A DNA stretch of 64,000 nucleotides from Oscillospiraceae bacterium. GTDB lineage: Bacteria; Bacillota; Clostridia; Oscillospirales; CAG-272. A program made the translations under genes and the position numbers. The notes under the pieces were generated by a model, which had not been told where the DNA came from, made no database searches, and saw nothing but the letters and a program-made list of their open reading frames with translations. Of the stretch, positions 1-12,939 are shown piece after piece. Location of the stretch: NCBI GenBank assembly GCA_015064845.1, contig SVRL01000006.1:6865-70864 (forward strand), written 5' to 3'. The first letter of the stretch is position 1. Each line of letters opens with the position of its first letter.

Positions 1-774
1 CTCAAAGGTTGTTGAGGTATCAAGTACCTTGCGTAGTGTCTGCCGTAGCTTCTCTTTGTCGGTTTCAAATTTCGTGGTGCGTGGTGTCAGCCCATCAGCG
101 GTAATTTTTCCATTTCGCTTGTCAAGCTCGGCTTGTCCCTTTTTCTGCGCCCAATACTCACGCTCGGTAACGCGGTTTGCGCTGCCGTGTAGCAGATCAA
201 TCTGATAGAGATTTTCGCGGTGGCACATTTCCATCACTTCGGATTTAAAATATTCCATAGCCGCGTCCGTACACCGGTGCTTGCAACCCTGCCGCGTATC
301 GGCGGGTCTGTCCATGTACGGGAGCAATGGGACTTCCTCTATTCGCAGAGAATTGATAACGATATGAACGTGGATATTGCCGCTGTGGTTATGCCCATCG
401 GGATGGGTACAGACAAGTGCTTGGTGTCCGCGAAAATGTGTTTTGCAAAATTCCTCGCCCAACTGCTGTGCGCGGTCAACGGTAAGTCCATTGTCTGTGC
501 CGTCCCGTGGGTCAAAGGAAATAATGTAGTGGTGGCTTTTCACATCTTCGCGTTTTTGGTTTTTGCCGTAACGGAGATTTGCCCGCATACAGGCAATCGC
601 AAAATCTTCATCACCACAGCCTATCGTGGCAATTCTGAAATTCTCGCGTGGTATGAGCCGCCCGTTTTCGTCAAGCGTGGGCTTCATAGAAAACTCATCG
701 TGGGCAAAGGTCAGATATTTTTCGGCTGCGCCGTAATCAGCATTTTTAGAGCTGATATGTTTGAACGTAGCCAT
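1..774 (-). CDS. MOBP-type relaxase, N-terminal 258 codons (continues beyond base 1; absent from the ORF track)
   Basis: Manual translation MATFKHISSKNADYGAAEKYL... with motif HPDGHNHSGNIHVHIVINS; overlaps the mobC stop. Confidence 0.93.
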   Translation of the reverse strand, partial: MATFKHISSKNADYGAAEKYLTFAHDEFSMKPTLDENGRLIPRENFRIATIGCGDEDFAIACMRANLRYGKNQKREDVKSHHYIISFDPRDGTDNGLTVDRAQQLGEEFCKTHFRGHQALVCTHPDGHNHSGNIHVHIVINSLRIEEVPLLPYMDRPADTRQGCKHRCTDAAMEYFKSEVMEMCHRENLYQIDLLHGSANRVTEREYWAQKKGQAELDKRNGKITADGLTPRTTKFETDKEKLRQTLRKVLDTSTTFE

Positions 775-1150
775 TCAGTTCACCTACCTTTTGCAAGACT
801 TCATATTTCAGCGCGGCGAGATCTGAAGCGGCGGCTTGTATCTCGGCGGCAAGCTGTGGGTAAGGGTTTCGCCATTCATTCAGCATCCGAGCTATCTGAT
901 TGATGTTGTTGCCGATCTTGTTGTATTCGGCAACGAGCTTACCGAGGGTAGCAAGCACTTCATCGTTGACGGGATTGACACGGATAATCGGTTTTACAAC
1001 TGCACCGTCAATGGCTTGCCGTATAAACTCGGATTGGCTCATTTCGTAATTTTTCATTCGCTCCATAAAGAAGCTGTGTTCTTCCTCGGTCAAGCGTGTC
1101 TTGACTACGAAAGTGCGGTGTGGCGTGTTGTACTTTTTTGGCATAGGCAT
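746..1150 (-). CDS. mobC: Relaxosome accessory protein MobC (ribbon-helix-helix)
   Basis: KTRLTEEE...SQSEFIRQAI and KIGNNINQIAR motifs; RBS GAAAGGAG before ATG at 1150; directly upstream of the relaxase. Confidence 0.9.
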   Translation of the reverse strand: MPMPKKYNTPHRTFVVKTRLTEEEHSFFMERMKNYEMSQSEFIRQAIDGAVVKPIIRVNPVNDEVLATLGKLVAEYNKIGNNINQIARMLNEWRNPYPQLAAEIQAAASDLAALKYEVLQKVGELNGYVQTYQL

Positions 1151-1440
1151 AACTCCTTTCACTTACCGTATTTTTTTAGAGGTTTTAGCAACCCATTTTG
1201 AAAAGTCCCTCTATATACCGCCTTTTTTTAGCCGATTTTTAAGGGTATTTTTGAAAAATCCGAAAAATATTTTTCACCTATCGCCGTTTTTCTTCGGCTT
1301 TAGCAACCGTCAAAAATTTGTCCCTCTATTTAACATCTTTTTTCAGTGGTTTTAGCCCCCTGTTTTTTGCGATTTCTGAAAACAACAAATTTTCTTTGAT
1401 GGATTTCTGCGAGATAACGTAAAAGCTTGGTTGTTCCGCT

Positions 1441-2519: not shown

Positions 2520-3569
2520 TTATGGAAGTTTTTCGTTATTAATAACATACATAGGATTAAAAAATGTAATACCGCTCCTGTTCTCATACATCGAATGGCT
2601 GTTGAAGGCTTTTCTATCCGATGTGTAACCGTAATAAGAACCAGCACGAAATGTATCTGCAATTGCGAAATGGAGGTGTGCGCCAGTACTGCTACCAGTA
2701 TTTCCGCATGTTCCAATTTCGGTCCCTTTCTGTATTTTTTGTTCGGGTTTTACTTTGATGGAACCGTATTGCAAATGTCCATACATTGAATATACTTTTT
2801 TTCCACCTATAGTGTGTTCAATAACTACATAATAACCATTTCCTCTCGGATTTGATATTGTTGATGCATCTGCACCAGTTCCATTCAATCCTGTTGCTAC
2901 AACCTTACCATCGGCGGCTGCATATACGGTTGAATCTGAGGTGCTTTTAATATCGATTCCAAGATGTCCTGATTTTCCAAACGCCTGAGTGGTAATAACA
3001 TTTCCTCTCATTGGCATCTGCCATTCATCAGATATTGCATTTTTAGCTATTAATTTGACCTGAATGGCTTCCAACCTTAAAGATTTTCCCTCAGTTCCTG
3101 CTACTGCACCGTTTCTAACCCACGGCATCCAACCAATATTTTGAACATGAACACGGTATTCAACATCATAATACTTTGCAATTTCACCAGTAAGTTCTAT
3201 CTTCACTGCCTCCATGCGCAGTGATTTTCCTACTGTACCACTAATCGCATTATTTGAAGAATAATTTGTCCACCCCACATTTTGAATATGTGTGCTATAT
3301 TTTACACCGCCAGAGATACCGCTCACTTTGATTTTAATGGCTTCGCCTCTTAAAGATAGTCCTTCCGTGCCAGCTACTGTGCCATTCATACGATACGATT
3401 GCCAACCAATATTTTGAACATGCATCGAGTACTGTATTGAAGGAGTTTGTGTATTGGATGCTGCCGAAACGGGGATGGTCATAACTGTGAAGCAAGCCAT
3501 AAGGGAAACTATGGCGAGTGCGAAAGAGATGATTTTTTTGAAAGTTGAATTTTGAGTTAAAGTTTTCAT
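2520..3569 (-). CDS. Secreted M23 metallopeptidase with three clostridial hydrophobic-W (ChW) repeats
   Basis: Signal peptide ending VSA-A; three HVQNIGW...G(T/K)(E/S)..LR.EA repeats; Zn motifs HLGID and HLH intact; RBS GGAGG. Confidence 0.9.
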   Translation of the reverse strand: MKTLTQNSTFKKIISFALAIVSLMACFTVMTIPVSAASNTQTPSIQYSMHVQNIGWQSYRMNGTVAGTEGLSLRGEAIKIKVSGISGGVKYSTHIQNVGWTNYSSNNAISGTVGKSLRMEAVKIELTGEIAKYYDVEYRVHVQNIGWMPWVRNGAVAGTEGKSLRLEAIQVKLIAKNAISDEWQMPMRGNVITTQAFGKSGHLGIDIKSTSDSTVYAAADGKVVATGLNGTGADASTISNPRGNGYYVVIEHTIGGKKVYSMYGHLQYGSIKVKPEQKIQKGTEIGTCGNTGSSTGAHLHFAIADTFRAGSYYGYTSDRKAFNSHSMYENRSGITFFNPMYVINNEKLP

Positions 3570-3624
3570 GGTAATACCTCCAAAGTAAAAATTTTTTTAA
3601 TGGATTACAAAGCCGCGCGCCTTG

Positions 3625-3707
3625 CTTTGTTTTCTGACTCTATTGTACCATACTAAAATGCAAACTTCCATGCATTCATATATGTAAGTTTTCCGAAAGA
3701 GATGTAA
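3625..3707 (-). promoter_or_regulatory. Duplicated promoter/operator module, copy 1 (upstream of ChW-M23)
   Basis: Shares CATATATGTAAGTTTTCCGAAAGA(G/C)ATGTAA (3677-3707) and the extended -10/+1 block with 4649-4732. Confidence 0.85.
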
Positions 3708-3782
3708 TTTTTCACATTTCCGAATTATGATTGTACATCCATTTAAGGATTGCCTTGATCCAGGATATGTTGGGGTTGCCAA

Positions 3783-4175
3783 TTACCAGTGACCGTTTTT
3801 ATCAGGGTTAATATATCCTTCTTCTACCCATCTCTGTATATATTTTTGTTCTAAAATTTCCGATTCTGTTTTGGGAACATCAATTAAATGAAGATTGGGG
3901 TTATCTGCTATTTTTTTGCATATGGATTCTATTACCTCTTCATAAAAACTTCCTATTTCATATAAAGGAATATTTCGTCCTGCGTAGTAGTCGTCAGAAT
4001 CCGCAATTTTATATTCTTTGTCTGCGCCATTTGGCACAATGGTTACGTTCAGATAGAGATTAGGGGCTTCAAACCCCTTCTCGTTGTACGCTTGATAACG
4101 AATACTCCAGACACAAGTTGACGGGATATGAAGAATAACGGAATCTGCGTAATGGCTGTTGTATTTAATATACAT
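3783..4175 (-). CDS. Hypothetical acidic protein, 130 aa
   Basis: ORF with RBS GAGGAG; no family recognised. Confidence 0.7.
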   Translation of the reverse strand: MYIKYNSHYADSVILHIPSTCVWSIRYQAYNEKGFEAPNLYLNVTIVPNGADKEYKIADSDDYYAGRNIPLYEIGSFYEEVIESICKKIADNPNLHLIDVPKTESEILEQKYIQRWVEEGYINPDKNGHW

Positions 4176-4244
4176 AACATTGTTCTCCTCGATTTCTATG
4201 ATTATTTTATTACAACTTTTAATAGCTGATTAATTATATATTAC

Positions 4245-4586
4245 TCAATATGTAATGTTGTCCACTATCCTTTGAAAAACATTCAAATATTTTTTGTCGT
4301 TTTTCTTTTTCAGGAAATGAGATATTATAATGATCTTCGTGTTATCCACCGCGTATAAGAGCCGAATCTGGAGATTATCGGACACGCTTTTATAGACATA
4401 ATAATCGCGTGTGCGTCCGTGTATGATGTCATGTATCAGAACGTCATCGCCGAATATTTTACTTATCGGGATATTATAAGAATTGAATCTTGTTTGAAGC
4501 TTATCAATTGATTTTGAAATAACCTTTTTTGTGCTGGGATCTAATTTGAAAAAATGTTCGTCTAAAATTAAAATGTTGTTTTCCAT
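4245..4586 (-). CDS. RelE/HigB (Gp49-like) superfamily protein, putative mRNA interferase
   Basis: 113 aa; C-terminal pattern QIRLLYAVDNTKIIIISHFLKK resembles the R(I/L)LYF...IILLHGF.KK signature. Confidence 0.55.
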   Translation of the reverse strand: MENNILILDEHFFKLDPSTKKVISKSIDKLQTRFNSYNIPISKIFGDDVLIHDIIHGRTRDYYVYKSVSDNLQIRLLYAVDNTKIIIISHFLKKKNDKKYLNVFQRIVDNITY

Positions 4587-4648
4587 GTCCTATCCTTTCA
4601 TATACAGTGATGTTTGTTTTATCTTTGAATGCCGATTTATGTATACGA

Positions 4649-4732
4649 CTTCGTTTTCTGACTATAGTTTACCACATAAGAATAGGGACTTACACGTATG
4701 CATATATGTAAGTTTTCCGAAAGACATGTAAA
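4649..4732 (-). promoter_or_regulatory. Duplicated promoter/operator module, copy 2 (upstream of the RelE-like gene, back-to-back with the STAND promoter)
   Basis: 31-bp near-identical repeat at 4701-4731; palindrome CTTACA-N12-TGTAAG at 4689-4712; TGG-TAAACT extended -10. Confidence 0.85.
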
Positions 4733-4751
4733 TGTTCATGTTGTTTTTCCA

Positions 4752-4780
4752 TTGACAAAAAACTCATTTTTTCTTATAAT
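4752..4780 (+). promoter_or_regulatory. Consensus sigma-A promoter of the STAND gene
   Basis: TTGACA-17 nt-TATAAT. Confidence 0.85.
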
Positions 4781-4817
4781 TATATTAGTAATATTTTACA
4801 GAAAAAGGAGGCATTTT

Positions 4818-7394
4818 ATGTTATACTTGGAGTTTATTGAAATAATGAGTTCGTGCACAAGTATTTTGGGTCGAGAAAAATGTAGCAGATTTGACATAGA
4901 GAAATTGATTTTCGCGCCTCAAGATGACAAGGGTACATACTCGTTTAAATATAAAGGTTCAAAATCAAATGAAGTTCCGGTATATTTACCGGCATCTCAG
5001 GCTATTAGACTTATTAGTGTAAAACAAAAAGATGAAAAACTTCTGCCAATATATTTCCTTCCATCAAACTGGAAAATAGCACTAAGCCATTCCGATAATT
5101 ACCCAAGGCTTTGGCAAAATGTTGAATCTTATATTAATAAAAATACGGAAAATATACGAGAAATCAACTATGAAGGATTAGCAGGGAAATTGAGGTCAAC
5201 CGAAGAAGTGGCACTGTTCATAAATAAATATTTGAAAAATATTCCTCTTGATGATAAAAATTTTTGCATGATAGGAATTTTTATCGGCATACAAATAATT
5301 GCAAATGAAAAAGTAGTGGAAGCTCCTTCTGATAAATTAATCAAAATCTTAACGGAGAAGATATCGTCTTTTTCTGCGATGTCTGGAGCCGTTATAAAAA
5401 AAGAAAATAAAGATCAAAAACTCCTTTCATCTCCTAAACCCATTTCCAAAACGATCTACGGCAGAGATAAAATTATTGATGATGTAGCGCAACAGTTAAA
5501 AGAGAATCACGTTATTTTTCTTTATGGCATAGGCGGTATAGGAAAGACGCAAATAGCGAAGAACTATGTAAAAAAATATAGCTCAAATTATGACACAATC
5601 ATTTACGGAACATATCCAAATACGGATAACAGCAAATCTAATGACGAACCTAACGATGGCTTAAAAGAGTTGCTGCTTTCAGAAGATGTATTTGCTTTCG
5701 AACCAAAAATGAATCGAAGAGTGTTGTCGGACGGAAGTTTGGAAAATGATGATGACTACGCAGGAAGAAAACTTCAAAAGATCAAAGATTTGTCAAATGA
5801 GCGGACTCTTATCATTGTAGATAACTTTGATGTTATGAACGATAAATTACTCTCTGAATTCATAAACGGAAGATATCATTTGTTAATAACCACACGTTGT
5901 TCCTATGAAAATATGTATCCAATGATAAAAGTCAAAGAGATTGAAGATATTGACGATATCAAACAAATATTTTTCAAAAATTATCGATGTGATATTGTAA
6001 CTTGTGATGATCCTCATTTGGAAGAGTTGATTGAATTGGTAAATAGGCACACCTATACGATTGAATTAATTGCAAAACATATGTCAAATAGTGGGCAATC
6101 CACATTGGAAATGATAGATTTACTGAAAAAAGAAGGGATCATATGTTTAAACGAAGAAATTCGAAATGACGATTGCTCTACAGAGGTAGCATTTGAAAAT
6201 TTAAAGAAAATGTTTAAGATTTTCAGGCTTTCAGATGAGGAAAAGCAAATTCTTCAGTATATGTGTCTTATGCCTTTGAGCGGTGTAAAAAAGAGCGATT
6301 TTAAAAGGTGGGCAGGTTTAAAATCTCTATCAAAAGTTAATAATCTTATAGATCGGAGCTGGATTATCCAAAATACCAATGGTATTGCACTTCATCCCAT
6401 TATTCGCGATGTTGTTCGAAAACAATTACCCTTGACAAACGATAATATTGAATTTTTCATCATTAATTTTATAAATGATATGAATGATGTTCATAATACA
6501 TTGAGAAAACATCATTTGATATACAGAGAACGCAAAATTCATTTAGATATAGCAGAGACACTAATCGAAAAAATCACATCAGAAAAATTATTATATGATC
6601 AATTGAGATTTATATATGCTTACTGTGTTTTTGATACGGGCAATAGCAATCGTGCTGTCCAACTCTTTGAAGAATTGCTGCAAACTAGCAACAACTTAGC
6701 ATTCAAATTAAACTGCTATGAAAAAGTAATTCAAAATTATGTTTTGTTGGGAGAAGCTGCTATCGCTGTAGAAATTGCATTAAAAGCTTATGAAGAAGTT
6801 AAACCTTTTGCAGCGAATATAAATTCCCCAGACATAGGAAGACATTATATTTGCTTACTTCATCGTCTTATTGAAGCATATAGACTACTTGGTGATTATG
6901 AAAAATCTTTGTATTATGGAACTTTATGCTTGTCACAAAGTGATAAATTTTTCGAAATATACAAAGATGACTTGACTGCATGGACAAAATATCATATCGG
7001 GCGAACATTGGTATTGAAAGGAGAGCCTTGTGAAGAATTTCTAAAAGAAGCCATGGAAGTATTTCTATCAAATCAAGACGATTTAGCAGTTGCTAACTGT
7101 AATGATATTTTGGCATTGGTCTATAAACAAAAGGGATTATTTGTCGAAGCCTTAACGATTAATGAAGAAGCATATAAAATGCACACCCATTTGTTGGGCA
7201 ATTTTCATATCGATATTGCCAATAATCAAAAATGGCGTGGTGATATTTTCTTGAAAATGAAAAAGTTTGACGATGCTGAAAAATGTTATCAGAATGCAAT
7301 TTTAATATATAAAAATAAGAATTGTAGAATTCATGTGGAAGAAGTCATTGCCATTTTAAATTATATTAAGCATATGAAAAATTTGGAGGAATAG
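4818..7394 (+). CDS. STAND (NB-ARC-like) NTPase with C-terminal TPR array and a ~200-aa unassigned N-terminal domain
   Basis: IYGRD, Walker A GIGGIGKT, Walker B IIVDNFD, sensor LITTR, winged-helix LHPIIR, then TPR-like helices; start moved to ATG 4818 after RBS AAAGGAGG. Confidence 0.88.
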   Translation: MLYLEFIEIMSSCTSILGREKCSRFDIEKLIFAPQDDKGTYSFKYKGSKSNEVPVYLPASQAIRLISVKQKDEKLLPIYFLPSNWKIALSHSDNYPRLWQNVESYINKNTENIREINYEGLAGKLRSTEEVALFINKYLKNIPLDDKNFCMIGIFIGIQIIANEKVVEAPSDKLIKILTEKISSFSAMSGAVIKKENKDQKLLSSPKPISKTIYGRDKIIDDVAQQLKENHVIFLYGIGGIGKTQIAKNYVKKYSSNYDTIIYGTYPNTDNSKSNDEPNDGLKELLLSEDVFAFEPKMNRRVLSDGSLENDDDYAGRKLQKIKDLSNERTLIIVDNFDVMNDKLLSEFINGRYHLLITTRCSYENMYPMIKVKEIEDIDDIKQIFFKNYRCDIVTCDDPHLEELIELVNRHTYTIELIAKHMSNSGQSTLEMIDLLKKEGIICLNEEIRNDDCSTEVAFENLKKMFKIFRLSDEEKQILQYMCLMPLSGVKKSDFKRWAGLKSLSKVNNLIDRSWIIQNTNGIALHPIIRDVVRKQLPLTNDNIEFFIINFINDMNDVHNTLRKHHLIYRERKIHLDIAETLIEKITSEKLLYDQLRFIYAYCVFDTGNSNRAVQLFEELLQTSNNLAFKLNCYEKVIQNYVLLGEAAIAVEIALKAYEEVKPFAANINSPDIGRHYICLLHRLIEAYRLLGDYEKSLYYGTLCLSQSDKFFEIYKDDLTAWTKYHIGRTLVLKGEPCEEFLKEAMEVFLSNQDDLAVANCNDILALVYKQKGLFVEALTINEEAYKMHTHLLGNFHIDIANNQKWRGDIFLKMKKFDDAEKCYQNAILIYKNKNCRIHVEEVIAILNYIKHMKNLEE

Positions 7395-7465
7395 TAAAAC
7401 GTGGGACTTTTCTTAATAAAGATTGTCTCGATATTATAGGGTGTTCAATACCCATAGGAGAAAGT

Positions 7466-8287
7466 ATGGATTTTCTTATTGAAGATGGTGTTTTAGAAAA
7501 GTACCTAGGAAGTAAATCCGTTGTCGTTGTCCCGGATGGTGTACACTGCATCGGCAGAGCTGCTTTTCAAAATTGTCAAAGCATAAAAAATGTTATCGTT
7601 CCCAAAAGTGTATCATTGATTGGAGAATGGGCTTTTGCTGGATGCGAATCACTAGAGTGCGTTCAAATCATAGGAAATGCTGTACTGAAAAAAGGTTCTT
7701 TTTATAAATGTGCCAATCTGAAAGAACTGATTGCACCGAACGGATTGTCGGAAATCGAAGACTCGGCTTTTGTGGGATGCAAAAGTTTACATTCAGACCT
7801 ATTGAGCGCAATAACCTTTGAATTACATACGGTTGTTAGTATGCATAATGATGTTACTTATCCGAATGATGAAGATATTTGCATAAAAGCTTACCCATGG
7901 AAAGAGTATCAAAAAATCACAGCAATGACTTTAGATTATGCACTTATATATTCCACGGAAAAATATAATGAACTGGAAAGACCTGAAATACCTACTTTGT
8001 GGAAAAAAAGCAAGCCGATTTCCGATGATTTGATATTAGTGAAAGATAGCAGTTTTGCAGGATGTTTGGTAGAAGAAGAACGCATATATATGTACGATTA
8101 CAAGAATCCTCATATGCGTTTGGCAATTGTTCGTCTAGACGGTAAAGCCATTCGCATACGTTCTCGGGATGGTAACAACTTGCCATTTGATATGTATGAA
8201 AAAACGGATGTTATTCTAAAAAAACATTGCGAAAACGCACATTGGAGCAGGTCGGTCAATTCAATTCTCAAAACCGTTTTAAGTTGA
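7466..8287 (+). CDS. Cytoplasmic BspA-type leucine-rich-repeat protein with unassigned C-terminal domain
   Basis: IEDGVLEKY..VVVPDGVHCIGRAAFQNC and further IGxxAFxxC repeats; no signal peptide. Confidence 0.8.
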   Translation: MDFLIEDGVLEKYLGSKSVVVVPDGVHCIGRAAFQNCQSIKNVIVPKSVSLIGEWAFAGCESLECVQIIGNAVLKKGSFYKCANLKELIAPNGLSEIEDSAFVGCKSLHSDLLSAITFELHTVVSMHNDVTYPNDEDICIKAYPWKEYQKITAMTLDYALIYSTEKYNELERPEIPTLWKKSKPISDDLILVKDSSFAGCLVEEERIYMYDYKNPHMRLAIVRLDGKAIRIRSRDGNNLPFDMYEKTDVILKKHCENAHWSRSVNSILKTVLS

Positions 8288-8333
8288 AAATTTCGCACTT
8301 TGGATGTTTTAAAACATCCGAAGTGCGAAATTT
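8288..8333. terminator. 46-bp near-perfect palindrome between convergent genes (bidirectional terminator or cruciform)
   Basis: AAATTTCGCACTTTGGATGTTTT|AAAACATCCGAAGTGCGAAATTT, one mismatch. Confidence 0.75.
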
Positions 8334-11533: not shown

Positions 11534-11550
11534 AATTGAGGAGGTTATAT

Positions 11551-12939
11551 ATGCATTATTCTTTAAATGAGATTATTGCGAGATTATCGCTTCATAAATA
11601 TTTTGAAAAAATTCAAAAGAAAGAATCCAAAAATTACAAAGAAATTCTTCTTAAAAGATTATTTGATATAGATTATTACGGTGCGCCTAGTGGACGGGAT
11701 GCATTCTTTCGCGGCAATTACAAGCATCCAGGAAATGAGGACTTCCCCTCTTTACAAAAAGAAACAGATTTAACCCAAAAAATTACTGAACTTTTTTTTG
11801 ATAATAATTATATACAAACATTATTCGAAAAAATTAAACAAAATATATGGGAGCCTCTACAACACGATACAGAGAAAATATTGTCGGAACATCGCAAAGA
11901 TATTTTCGGAGATTTTCGATATGACACTGTAACTAAAACTAATCGAATGCTGGATAACGATTTAATAAAAACAATTGAAATCTTGTTGGAATCAGAATCA
12001 AAAGACTCATTCATTTATGTCATTTTATTATTCATTTTAATTGCCATATTCCATGAAGATATTACTACTCAACCTGTTTCTATCGTATTAAAGGAAGAAA
12101 CAATAGAAAGCATTCTAAAAATTGGATTTAGCAAAAATAATTATCCTACATCCATCTCAAATACATTAAATGGATCTATAACAAACGAATATAATAAATT
12201 ATTCGTTCATCCTCAATACAAAAACTTTAAAATCTATCTTTACAACGATACAGGGAACTACACTTCCGATTTTTGTTTCGGAGAAATCCATTTTATGGAT
12301 AATGGTAATGTGACACTTAGTTATCAAAATGAAAATTCAACAGGAACAACTAAGTATTCCGGCAAAGCATATCTTTTTACCGTTAATGAATTGGTTCATA
12401 TAACTCTTGAAGACGAGGCTACACATAGAGGGGCTTTCATTTGTTTTCATTATACTGAATTTCAAAAGGGACCTAAAAAATGTTTGCTTAGAAAAGGATT
12501 ATTCATTTCAACCGGTGCTGCCTCCGAGAATTTTAGGCCGTTTGTGAAAAATATTATTTTATTACACAAAGAGCCAACACAACAAGAGTTTGTACGTGGT
12601 TTGTTAAAATGTTGCGATATGCGAAACGGAAACGAATTTATTATTATACAAAAAAACTCAGTGAACCATTTCATAGATCGACTTTATGAATTTGATTTTA
12701 TGCTTTCTCTCAGTAATTCAAAATTGCTTTTTAAACAATTTTTTGCTAAACATGAGCACAATAATTACTGTTTTGTCAAAGAAAATGAGTTCTTAGTTTT
12801 TTTAATGGAAAATTTCAAACCATTTTTAAATGAATGGGAACGCATAGAAATTATTTTGCTCCTTAAGTCATTTTCAGAATTACCTAATGCAATCTATCCC
12901 TATGCAACACCGGATCCCACGTTCCAAATTTTTCGTTAA
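11551..12939 (+). CDS. Hypothetical protein (helical N-terminus, beta-rich middle domain)
   Basis: Long AT-rich ORF; start after RBS GAGGAGG; no family recognised. Confidence 0.75.
   Translation: MHYSLNEIIARLSLHKYFEKIQKKESKNYKEILLKRLFDIDYYGAPSGRDAFFRGNYKHPGNEDFPSLQKETDLTQKITELFFDNNYIQTLFEKIKQNIWEPLQHDTEKILSEHRKDIFGDFRYDTVTKTNRMLDNDLIKTIEILLESESKDSFIYVILLFILIAIFHEDITTQPVSIVLKEETIESILKIGFSKNNYPTSISNTLNGSITNEYNKLFVHPQYKNFKIYLYNDTGNYTSDFCFGEIHFMDNGNVTLSYQNENSTGTTKYSGKAYLFTVNELVHITLEDEATHRGAFICFHYTEFQKGPKKCLLRKGLFISTGAASENFRPFVKNIILLHKEPTQQEFVRGLLKCCDMRNGNEFIIIQKNSVNHFIDRLYEFDFMLSLSNSKLLFKQFFAKHEHNNYCFVKENEFLVFLMENFKPFLNEWERIEIILLLKSFSELPNAIYPYATPDPTFQIFR

Follow-up and report, generated by a model that had tools for sequence, protein, structure and literature searches.

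The stretch of DNA considered here, referred to throughout as the window, is the whole 64,000-nucleotide (nt) segment of contig SVRL01000006.1 (assembly GCA_015064845.1, positions 6,865 to 70,864 of the forward strand) from an Oscillospiraceae bacterium. It holds part of an integrative mobilizable element of about 18 kb from ruminant-gut Clostridia, which carries as cargo a cassette built around a STAND gene and, divergent from it, the gene of an exported wall hydrolase. The features of this cassette, from left to right, are as follows.

2520–3569, minus strand: Sec-exported wall hydrolase of 349 amino acids (aa), with a signal peptide, three ChW repeats and an M23 metallopeptidase domain (Pfam and motif reading)
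3607–3630, minus strand: 5' stem-loop of the hydrolase leader (ACAAAGC-loop-GCTTTGT), conserved in relatives and followed by a GGAGG ribosome-binding site at 3577–3581
3625–3714, minus strand: promoter copy A, for the hydrolase (repeat and motif analysis)
3783–4175, minus strand: acidic orphan open reading frame (ORF) of 130 aa (isoelectric point, pI, 4.9), without a family, second gene of a pair
4245–4586, minus strand: basic 113-aa protein (pI 9.4), weakly Gp49/HigB(RelE)-like by Pfam, first gene of the pair
4649–4738, minus strand: promoter copy B, for the 113/130-aa pair (repeat and motif analysis)
4752–4780, plus strand: consensus sigma-A promoter of the STAND–LRR operon, TTGACA-17-TATAAT, the only 12/12 match in the region
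4818–5363, plus strand: N-terminal domain (N-domain) of the STAND, aa 1–182, called class A, a rare, exchangeable output module (database, profile and structure searches)
5364–7394, plus strand: STAND body, an NB-ARC-type P-loop NTPase with a C-terminal tetratricopeptide-repeat (TPR) sensor (Pfam and motifs)
7466–8287, plus strand: cytoplasmic BspA-type leucine-rich-repeat (LRR) protein of 273 aa with an uncharacterised 160-aa C-terminal half (Pfam LRR_5, 74.4 bits, cut-off 27.7)
8288–8333, no strand assigned: palindrome with 23-nt arms that are 96% complementary (inverted repeat I2), a probable two-way terminator ending the STAND–LRR operon (repeat search and sequence reading)

Most of these parts had been named in an earlier reading of the letters alone (the sequence-only reading), and as parts they stand: an NB-ARC-like NTPase with TPRs, a perfect sigma-A promoter in front of it, an LRR protein without a signal peptide, a secreted ChW-M23 wall hydrolase, and two copies of one promoter, then put at about 84 bp. 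The same reading had bound the STAND, LRR, 113-aa, 130-aa and hydrolase genes into a single system. Comparison with related loci points to a smaller conserved core, which is the head-to-head arrangement of a protein bearing a rare N-domain and a gene for a Sec-exported, wall-active product, represented in the window by the STAND–LRR operon and its divergent hydrolase. That the STAND switch is functionally coupled to the exported hydrolase, most likely at the level of transcription, is the reading tentatively preferred here, with a chance that approaches even.

The STAND gene starts at the ATG at 4818, behind the ribosome-binding site AAGGAGG at 4805–4811, and encodes 858 aa; the start at 4698 given in the ORF list is too early. 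Walker A (GIGGIGKT, aa 237–244), Walker B (LIIVDN, aa 331–336) and a TTR motif (aa 358) are intact, and Pfam recognises both NB-ARC (24.3 bits, cut-off 23.5) and nSTAND6 (31.5 bits, cut-off 27.7). The C-terminus matches TPR_12 (46.6 bits) and other TPR families, as well as the TPRs of kinesin light chain in the PDB, so that the protein has the Walker A/B and sensor-1 NTPase and the C-terminal TPR region by which STANDs are known. Among the best ~120 homologs, to which the comparison was confined, only P0002, P0004 and P0006 align from end to end, the rest doing so from about residue 190 with E values around 1e-110. The N-termini of this set cluster into a TIR type (66), a type starting with 'FICYRGG' (44), the class A of the window (5) and a class B (3), and the body is closest to those of TIR-STAND proteins.

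Bacterial TIR-NB-ARC-TPR proteins have the architecture of the plant TNPs (PMC9806590), and Avs/AVAST proteins are an example of NLR-like STANDs in defence (PMC12931631). The window protein shares with such proteins the NB-ARC NTPase and C-terminal TPR body (34–56% identity over 41–84% of the query) and the general order of an N-terminal output, a central switch and C-terminal repeats, with N-domains that are exchangeable. It differs from them in that a domain of about 182 aa, without a recognised family or fold, replaces TIR, and in the divergent exported hydrolase, which is absent at the TIR-type relatives. A suggested comparison with curated antiphage systems found no PADLOC defence model that fits the STAND; contact with the ThsB models is confined to the TIR part of relatives. 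The locus is of the NLR type in its build and in the way it would work, and falls outside the curated antiviral STANDs, having neither a model match nor a recognised effector. As an observation on the relatives themselves, a conserved AAA_21/AAA_15 ATPase of 291 aa (MK.YLESF.LASRS...) is encoded ahead of the TIR-NB-ARC-TPR genes at L002 and L051/L052, in the same direction, and the two may form a two-gene defence operon.

The N-domain is rare. A search of residues 1–190 against 1.84 billion representative proteins gave four real related clusters only: P0004 and P0123 (about 60% identity), the 73-aa fragment P0124, and P0125, a 397-aa non-STAND protein (37–39%). Matches to the WD40 proteins P0126 and P0127 proved spurious when the sequences were read. 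The domain has been swapped reciprocally at a junction near aa 182, with P0006 carrying a 97%-identical N-domain on a body that is about 30–50% identical and P0003 carrying a class-B N-domain on a 94%-identical body. No family or fold was recognised for it in Pfam, NCBIfam or a profile search of PDB sequences, and with Foldseek also empty, the earlier remark that the STAND N-terminus has no recognisable catalytic effector holds. A class-A profile found nothing related in the JGI metagenomes; a class-B profile run on 400 genomes of the class returned only a protein of the window itself, orf467, to which we return below, and P0003 was not found in viral contigs. Alignment of the class-A and class-B domains with hhalign gave no significant similarity, a weak negative because full-length rows padded the alignment used. 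At the extreme N-terminus the residues MxY do not vary, and a hydrophobic helix lies just before the NTPase in both classes (Kyte–Doolittle mean over 19 residues of 1.55–2.14). A single-sequence AlphaFold2 (AF2) model of the domain (predicted local distance difference test, pLDDT, 38) was useless. A homotypic adaptor role was considered and found unlikely, as the window has no second class-A copy.

The product of the divergent gene is a regular ChW-M23 enzyme. Its ChW repeats score 169 bits and its Peptidase_M23 domain 76.8 bits in Pfam, the zinc motifs HLGID (aa 202) and HLH (aa 298) are intact, and on direct reading the signal peptide is MKTLTQNSTFKKIISFALAIVSLMACFTVMTIPVSA, followed by AS, so that it ends VSA/AS. 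It resembles the M23 bacteriolysins of the lysostaphin and zoocin type and the ChW wall hydrolases of clostridia in its signal peptide, its wall-binding module, its M23 domain with intact HxxxD and HxH, and its carriage on a mobile element; it differs from them in that no Fem-type immunity gene is seen here, and in that the mature part is swapped among the relatives of the window hydrolase. Similar signal peptides (...SLFLxLATxLSCFTFLAxPVSA; window 3455–3569) stand before unrelated mature domains at L006, L007, L042, L047, L049 and L202, the domains being ChW-M23, M23, FG-GAP and one that is CHAP-like by eye without a family match. It looks as if mature parts had been swapped behind a fixed unit of promoter, leader and signal peptide. 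The stem-loop of the leader is kept at L047, at L202 and in both copies (A and B) at L006; at L049 the stem is altered on both sides, from CAAAG/CTTTG to ATCGAAG/CTTCGAT, and the loop stays GC-rich. The leader of the 113-aa gene has no stem-loop of this type. The stem-loop follows directly on the start block of the mRNA, and may serve either to stabilise the mRNA at its 5' end or as a downstream operator.

The two promoter copies (A, 3625–3714; B, 4649–4738) are 79% identical over 90 nt, and share a 24-nt exact core that occurs twice, against 0.00 expected by chance, and nowhere else in the genome. In copy A the iterons GAAAAATTACAT (3702–3713) and GAAAACTTACAT (3682–3693) are followed by a 31-nt spacer without a −35 element, the extended −10 TGGTACAAT (3642–3650) and the start block AGTCAGAAAAC (3629–3639). 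Copy B repeats the design, with iterons at 4726–4737 and 4706–4717, a 31-nt spacer, TGGTAAACT at 4666–4674 and AGTCAGAAAAC again at 4653–4663. Each copy thus has two iterons 20 nt apart, and within the window the iteron occurs at these two promoters only. Between the copies the spacer has diverged, but 30 of the 31 nt of the iteron block have been kept, as have the −10 and the start block, a sign that both copies are under selection as promoters. The distance from the last iteron to the extended −10 (TGGTAnAnT) is exactly 31 nt in copy A, copy B, L047 and L202, despite the differing spacers. The iterons are a candidate repeated operator for the STAND. Across the class-A loci the iterons are of the GAAAAyTTnCAT type, with three at L202 and looser ones at L049. 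The class-B element (L006/L007) has the same leader, with a TGTGGTT-type palindrome and a good −35 (TTGACC) in place of iterons. On the other side, near-consensus equivalents of the STAND promoter are found at L005/L202, L049 and L006.

Several searches and readings bearing on these motifs can be set aside. A reading of the 20-nt repeats as replication-origin iterons was rejected, since they keep a fixed distance from a promoter and are remote from the rep gene. The 19-nt iteron core gave chance matches only in the GTDB genomes (L039 was checked), and the pattern of −10 and start block, run on 400 genomes of the order, found only ordinary strong promoters of housekeeping genes, from which it follows that the AGTCAGAAA block is not specific alone. 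A leader pattern of TCAGAAA..CAAAG..CTTTGTAA was too loose, with 28 viral and at least 120 metagenome matches, none related by tblastn.

The duplication of the promoter has a history that can be followed at L047, where an M23-like hydrolase and a STAND (class-A N-domain on a different body) are separated by one 226-nt intergenic region with a single promoter. This region matches copy B of the window on its STAND side and copy A on its hydrolase side, which indicates that the corresponding 1,024-nt segment of the window, made up of the 113-aa gene, the 130-aa gene and the second promoter copy, is an insertion by recombination between two such promoters. The 113/130-aa pair is therefore a later arrival that inherited the same control, and the duplicated promoter offers a checkable history in which promoter-copy recombination captured a small toxin-like gene pair. 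L006, compared with L007, has an extra STAND (887 aa) and an M23-like gene between the FG-GAP gene and STAND879, and its two intergenic regions almost duplicate each other; here again a cassette was gained when promoters recombined. The contigs of L005 and L202, from the same sample, both break off about 148 nt ahead of the STAND gene, in intergenic sequence that is identical in the two; that genome evidently has the promoter region more than once, which broke the assembly.

The pairing itself was counted over loci with intact, visible upstream DNA. Every class-A locus of this kind has a divergent, signal-peptide-bearing wall-active gene: ChW-M23 in the window, M23-like at L047, M23 at L202/L005 (with P0123/P0004, both contigs breaking in the shared intergenic region), and at L049, where the N-domain sits on the non-STAND tail of P0125 (37–39% identity), a secreted protein of 363 aa with a CCAGYV...GHWAIV motif, CHAP-like by eye, in which Pfam finds nothing. 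The one class-B element seen (L006/L007) is arranged alike, its exported partners being an FG-GAP protein and an M23-like protein, and the paired loci lie on at least two different element backbones. Among relatives of the TIR or 'FICYRGG' type (L002, L003, L051 and L053), no exported wall-active partner was found at any of the four loci, and two of these STANDs sit behind the 291-aa AAA_21/AAA_15 ATPase. The tally is thus 5/5 for classes A and B against 0/4 for the other types. At L009/L010, the end of an IS-type transposase (...RIATRYDKL...) replaces the DNA upstream of P0006 to about 35 nt before the ribosome-binding site, and promoter and iterons are gone.

The five genes of the sequence-only reading fared less well. 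The full set co-occurs only in near-identical copies of the same element, and none of the LRR, 113-aa, 130-aa and ChW-M23 genes lies beside P0004 or P0005, which outside this element are the closest relatives of full or nearly full length. The neighbourhood survey proposed with that reading therefore largely refutes one conserved system of five genes: they do not occur together in other elements, the small pair is absent from L047, the 130-aa gene is an orphan and the LRR gene is optional. A STAND–LRR split sensor that switches on a RelE-like RNase and a wall hydrolase must be considered very improbable, even though the same promoter stands before both target units, the STAND and LRR genes look co-transcribed and the set is intact in at least 22 metagenome contigs of the element; the RelE assignment falls below the Pfam threshold and is not shared by homologs, and at L042 the LRR gene is present without a STAND. 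What survives of the proposed control by the STAND is, in outline, some link between it and the hydrolase, which the recurrent pairing supports.

How such a link would work can be sketched in part from what is generally known of STAND proteins. The STAND would be held off until its TPR region binds a ligand; the ligand-bound protein would then oligomerise through ATP binding and expose the N-domain as its output. Acting directly or by way of RNA polymerase at the iterons, which are centred near −52 and −72, the N-domain would turn on the hydrolase promoter together with the duplicated copy before the 113/130-aa pair. This specific route, transcriptional control of the hydrolase through the N-domain, is the favoured form of the coupling, the less favoured form being the membrane-active N-domain discussed below; taken on its own it is unlikely. 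The coupling as a whole is favoured by the constant head-to-head partner, the precise spacing of the iterons and a change of operator with the class of N-domain (iterons with class A, the TGTGGTT palindrome with class B), an arrangement of the kind expected of a classical regulator beside its target. A broader proposal, somewhat short of an even chance, is that of a portable sensor and exported-hydrolase cassette, in which a new output domain of two rare classes either reads the 12-nt iterons or serves as a holin-like trigger, and so gates a set of swapped Sec-exported hydrolases. If the coupling is true, it would represent a new output class for bacterial NLR-like proteins and give mobile elements a novel means of controlling lysis or the release of a bacteriolysin. 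Either an immune-type STAND chassis would have become a regulator by way of a new DNA-binding module, or lysis would be executed by an NLR-like switch together with a pre-exported enzyme.

Known regulators offer partial likenesses. AfsR and other SARP proteins, GutR, and MalT and the LAL family also join a P-loop STAND to a TPR-like sensor, and the window gene is divergent from a promoter with direct repeats and a weak or absent −35; a weak NCBIfam match to AfsR (E=5e-4) covers the TPR part of the STAND only. Unlike these, the window STAND has no OmpR-type winged helix, BTAD or LuxR helix-turn-helix (HTH), and its nearest relatives are TIR proteins, so that with no recognised DNA-binding domain the locus falls outside the STAND regulators as well. 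LytTR-type control of lysins and bacteriocins (AgrA, ComE and BlpR, with CbpD induced in competence) follows the same promoter logic, in which an exported murein hydrolase is driven from direct repeats that are spaced by about two helical turns and closely precede a poor −35; here, in contrast, Pfam finds no LytTR domain, and the regulator proposed is a STAND ATPase, not a response regulator.

A number of points weigh against a coupling of STAND and hydrolase. No HTH or other DNA-binding domain was found in aa 1–195 by Pfam at E<=1, by the PDB profile search or by Foldseek, where the best match of the N-domain model to the PDB had E=1.8 and a template modelling (TM) score below 0.2; the AF2 model behind that search, built from a 6-sequence alignment, has a moderate pLDDT of 59.9 and a helical bundle at aa 83–190. 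The domain is not basic either (pI 6.0–8.3), and the choice put earlier between an HTH and an effector ended with neither recognised. An extended −10 is workable without an activator, and the class-B hydrolase promoter, as noted, has a good −35. The co-variation of operator and N-domain is drawn from two classes only, and the iterons physically adjoin the N-domain gene. The hydrolase genes of the paired loci have in common the extended −10, the 5' stem-loop leader and similar signal peptides before unrelated mature domains; such sharing marks one lineage, in which the pairing may have been inherited rather than selected, and swaps anchored in the signal peptide would keep the partners 'secreted' by construction. 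With one lineage and recombination at the leader and signal peptide, the pairing is weaker evidence than 5/5 against 0/4 suggests. The expression data, moreover, are a few low-depth metatranscriptome contigs.

The usual reading of a bacterial NLR-like STAND is that of a self-contained sensor with its toxic effector built in, and the TIR-STAND chassis with its shuffled N-position favours such a reading here, as does the fact that the nearest relatives of the body have TIR, a death or signalling effector, where the window protein has its N-domain. It is therefore possible, though clearly short of an even chance, that the genes are unlinked cargo: the STAND a stand-alone abortive-infection or defence protein whose N-domain is a toxic effector in place of TIR, the hydrolase a bacteriolysin or mating-aid enzyme in its own right, and the 113/130-aa pair a separate addiction-type module, all brought together by a cargo hot spot and by recombination at a shared promoter and leader. 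Besides the TIR (66) and second-type (44) N-domains on homologous bodies, the shuffling of N-domains and the single lineage, this explanation draws on the strong, constitutive-type promoter of the STAND, on a gene order beside the STAND that differs between relatives, and on a mosaic divergence from L029, a copy of the same element (61–91% in the STAND and 79–90% across the LRR gene, with flanks at 99–100%). It sits poorly with the lack of a fitting PADLOC model, with a TPR part that is 99–100% identical between the window and L029, unlike a fast-evolving sensor, and with a pairing that extends to every class-A and class-B locus with intact upstream DNA, including one case of 37–39% N-domain identity and one on a different backbone, and to none of the four loci of other relatives. 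Nor does it account for the exact spacing of the iterons to the hydrolase promoter, with no other conserved regulator in sight.

Phages of Gram-positive bacteria combine holins with Sec-dependent endolysins, and the same logic would give a sensor that triggers lysis without transcription, in which a membrane-active N-domain dissipates the membrane potential, by means of the invariant MxY at its start and a conserved hydrophobic helix of 15 residues, and so unleashes the hydrolase that Sec has already exported. The presence of the helix before the NTPase in both classes, the invariant extreme N-terminus, the effector position shared with TIR and the conserved pairing with exported hydrolases are all in keeping with this. 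It is nonetheless improbable, since the AF2 model places the helix inside the helical bundle, 15 residues are short for a membrane span, Foldseek gave no fold match to known pore-formers, one of the partners is an FG-GAP protein and no obvious lysin, and the iterons with their fixed spacing are left unexplained. Other readings, such as an adaptor domain, take up the rest of the probability.

The label 'RelE-like' for the 113-aa protein is tentative. It comes solely from a match to PF05973 (Gp49/HigB-like) at 23.4 bits and E=6.4e-5, just below the 23.9-bit cut-off; the label gains no support from the homologs, three of which gave no match to PF05973, or from the profile search of PDB sequences, which returned no RelE or HigB. 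The homologs are few (29–35% identity, in other Clostridia), share QLRxxY and KKKNxKxY, and have different downstream genes at L031, L032 and L033, with no conserved partner. Like the HigB/Gp49 toxins that are paired with HigA, the protein is small, basic and encoded first in its pair; unlike them, it has an acidic orphan as partner and no HTH antitoxin. The 130-aa ORF has no family in Pfam, NCBIfam, PHROGs or PADLOC and no HTH, and among 5.8 billion proteins only near-identical copies were found. At L031 the neighbours of the 113-aa homolog resemble those in a conjugative element: upstream lie the gene of a JAB/MPN-type protein and an 80-aa ORF rich in cysteine, and downstream that of a VirD4/TraG-like coupling protein.

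The LRR protein has the LRR_5 repeats of the BspA-type surface proteins and, unlike them, no export signal; direct reading of its N-terminus, MDFLIEDGVLEKYLGSK, revealed neither a hydrophobic signal nor anchoring. The full-length family is narrow (75–100% identity). Its gene, which looks co-transcribed with the STAND, follows STAND variants at L029, L047 and L048 and a 285-aa non-STAND protein at L042, and is absent beside P0004, P0005 and P0123, the closest full-length STAND relatives, suggesting that the LRR protein is an optional accessory and not a core part.

The carrier was earlier described as an integrative and conjugative element, which was imprecise. It encodes a serine recombinase, an IstB-like ATPase, a replisome organiser, a relaxase, MobC and cargo, and no type IV secretion or mating-pair genes lie between the recombinase and the att end, so it is a mobilizable element. 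At L019 these genes stand in the order given, followed by DUF6061, a cut HTH gene and then chromosomal ComEC and PGI, and contig C50 has the same left arm directly upstream of the window. In the window the element begins with the following.

1–1162, minus strand: relaxase, truncated at the edge of the window, and MobC, both of the carrier element (gene content)

At least 22 metagenome contigs have an identical copy of the STAND, and the gene order is the same in all of them; the metagenome runs that hold the sequence are bovine, gut and faecal, and a plasmid search did not find the region. Between MobC and the hydrolase, positions 1200–2500 are gene-poor, a 155-aa ORF being called there in metagenome copies, and contain local direct repeats (1439–1480/1527–1568 at 86% identity, and 1205–1238/1320–1353); this may be an origin of transfer (oriT) or regulatory DNA. 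The divergence from L029 falls in two patches, 5015–6364 and 7265–8164 (the STAND end and most of the LRR gene), which look like recombination patches rather than a hypervariable sensor. Contigs X8 and X9, from two runs of unspecified type, join 7355 to 7836, thereby skipping 480 nt in which lie the stop codon of the STAND gene, the spacer and the repeat-encoding half of the LRR gene; they are only 90–99% like the window and probably come from a related strain that has a variant. In one gut metatranscriptome, short contigs of low depth cover 3562–3760, 3793–3997 (within the 130-aa ORF), 6419–6659 and 7531–7784; they are compatible with expression and too thin for mapping start sites.

Further along the same element lies the protein that the class-B profile had found.

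11536–12939, plus strand: 467-aa protein (orf467), no family, with an N-terminal ~180 aa related to the class-B N-domain (tblastn/blastp and alignment)

This N-terminal part is 33–37% identical to the N-domains of the L006 STAND887, P0003 and P0005, and its hydrophobic helix has a Kyte–Doolittle mean of 3.08 over 15 residues. The gene is divergent to an ABC-2 exporter operon, and is thus a second case, on the same element, of a rare-N-domain protein that faces an export operon.

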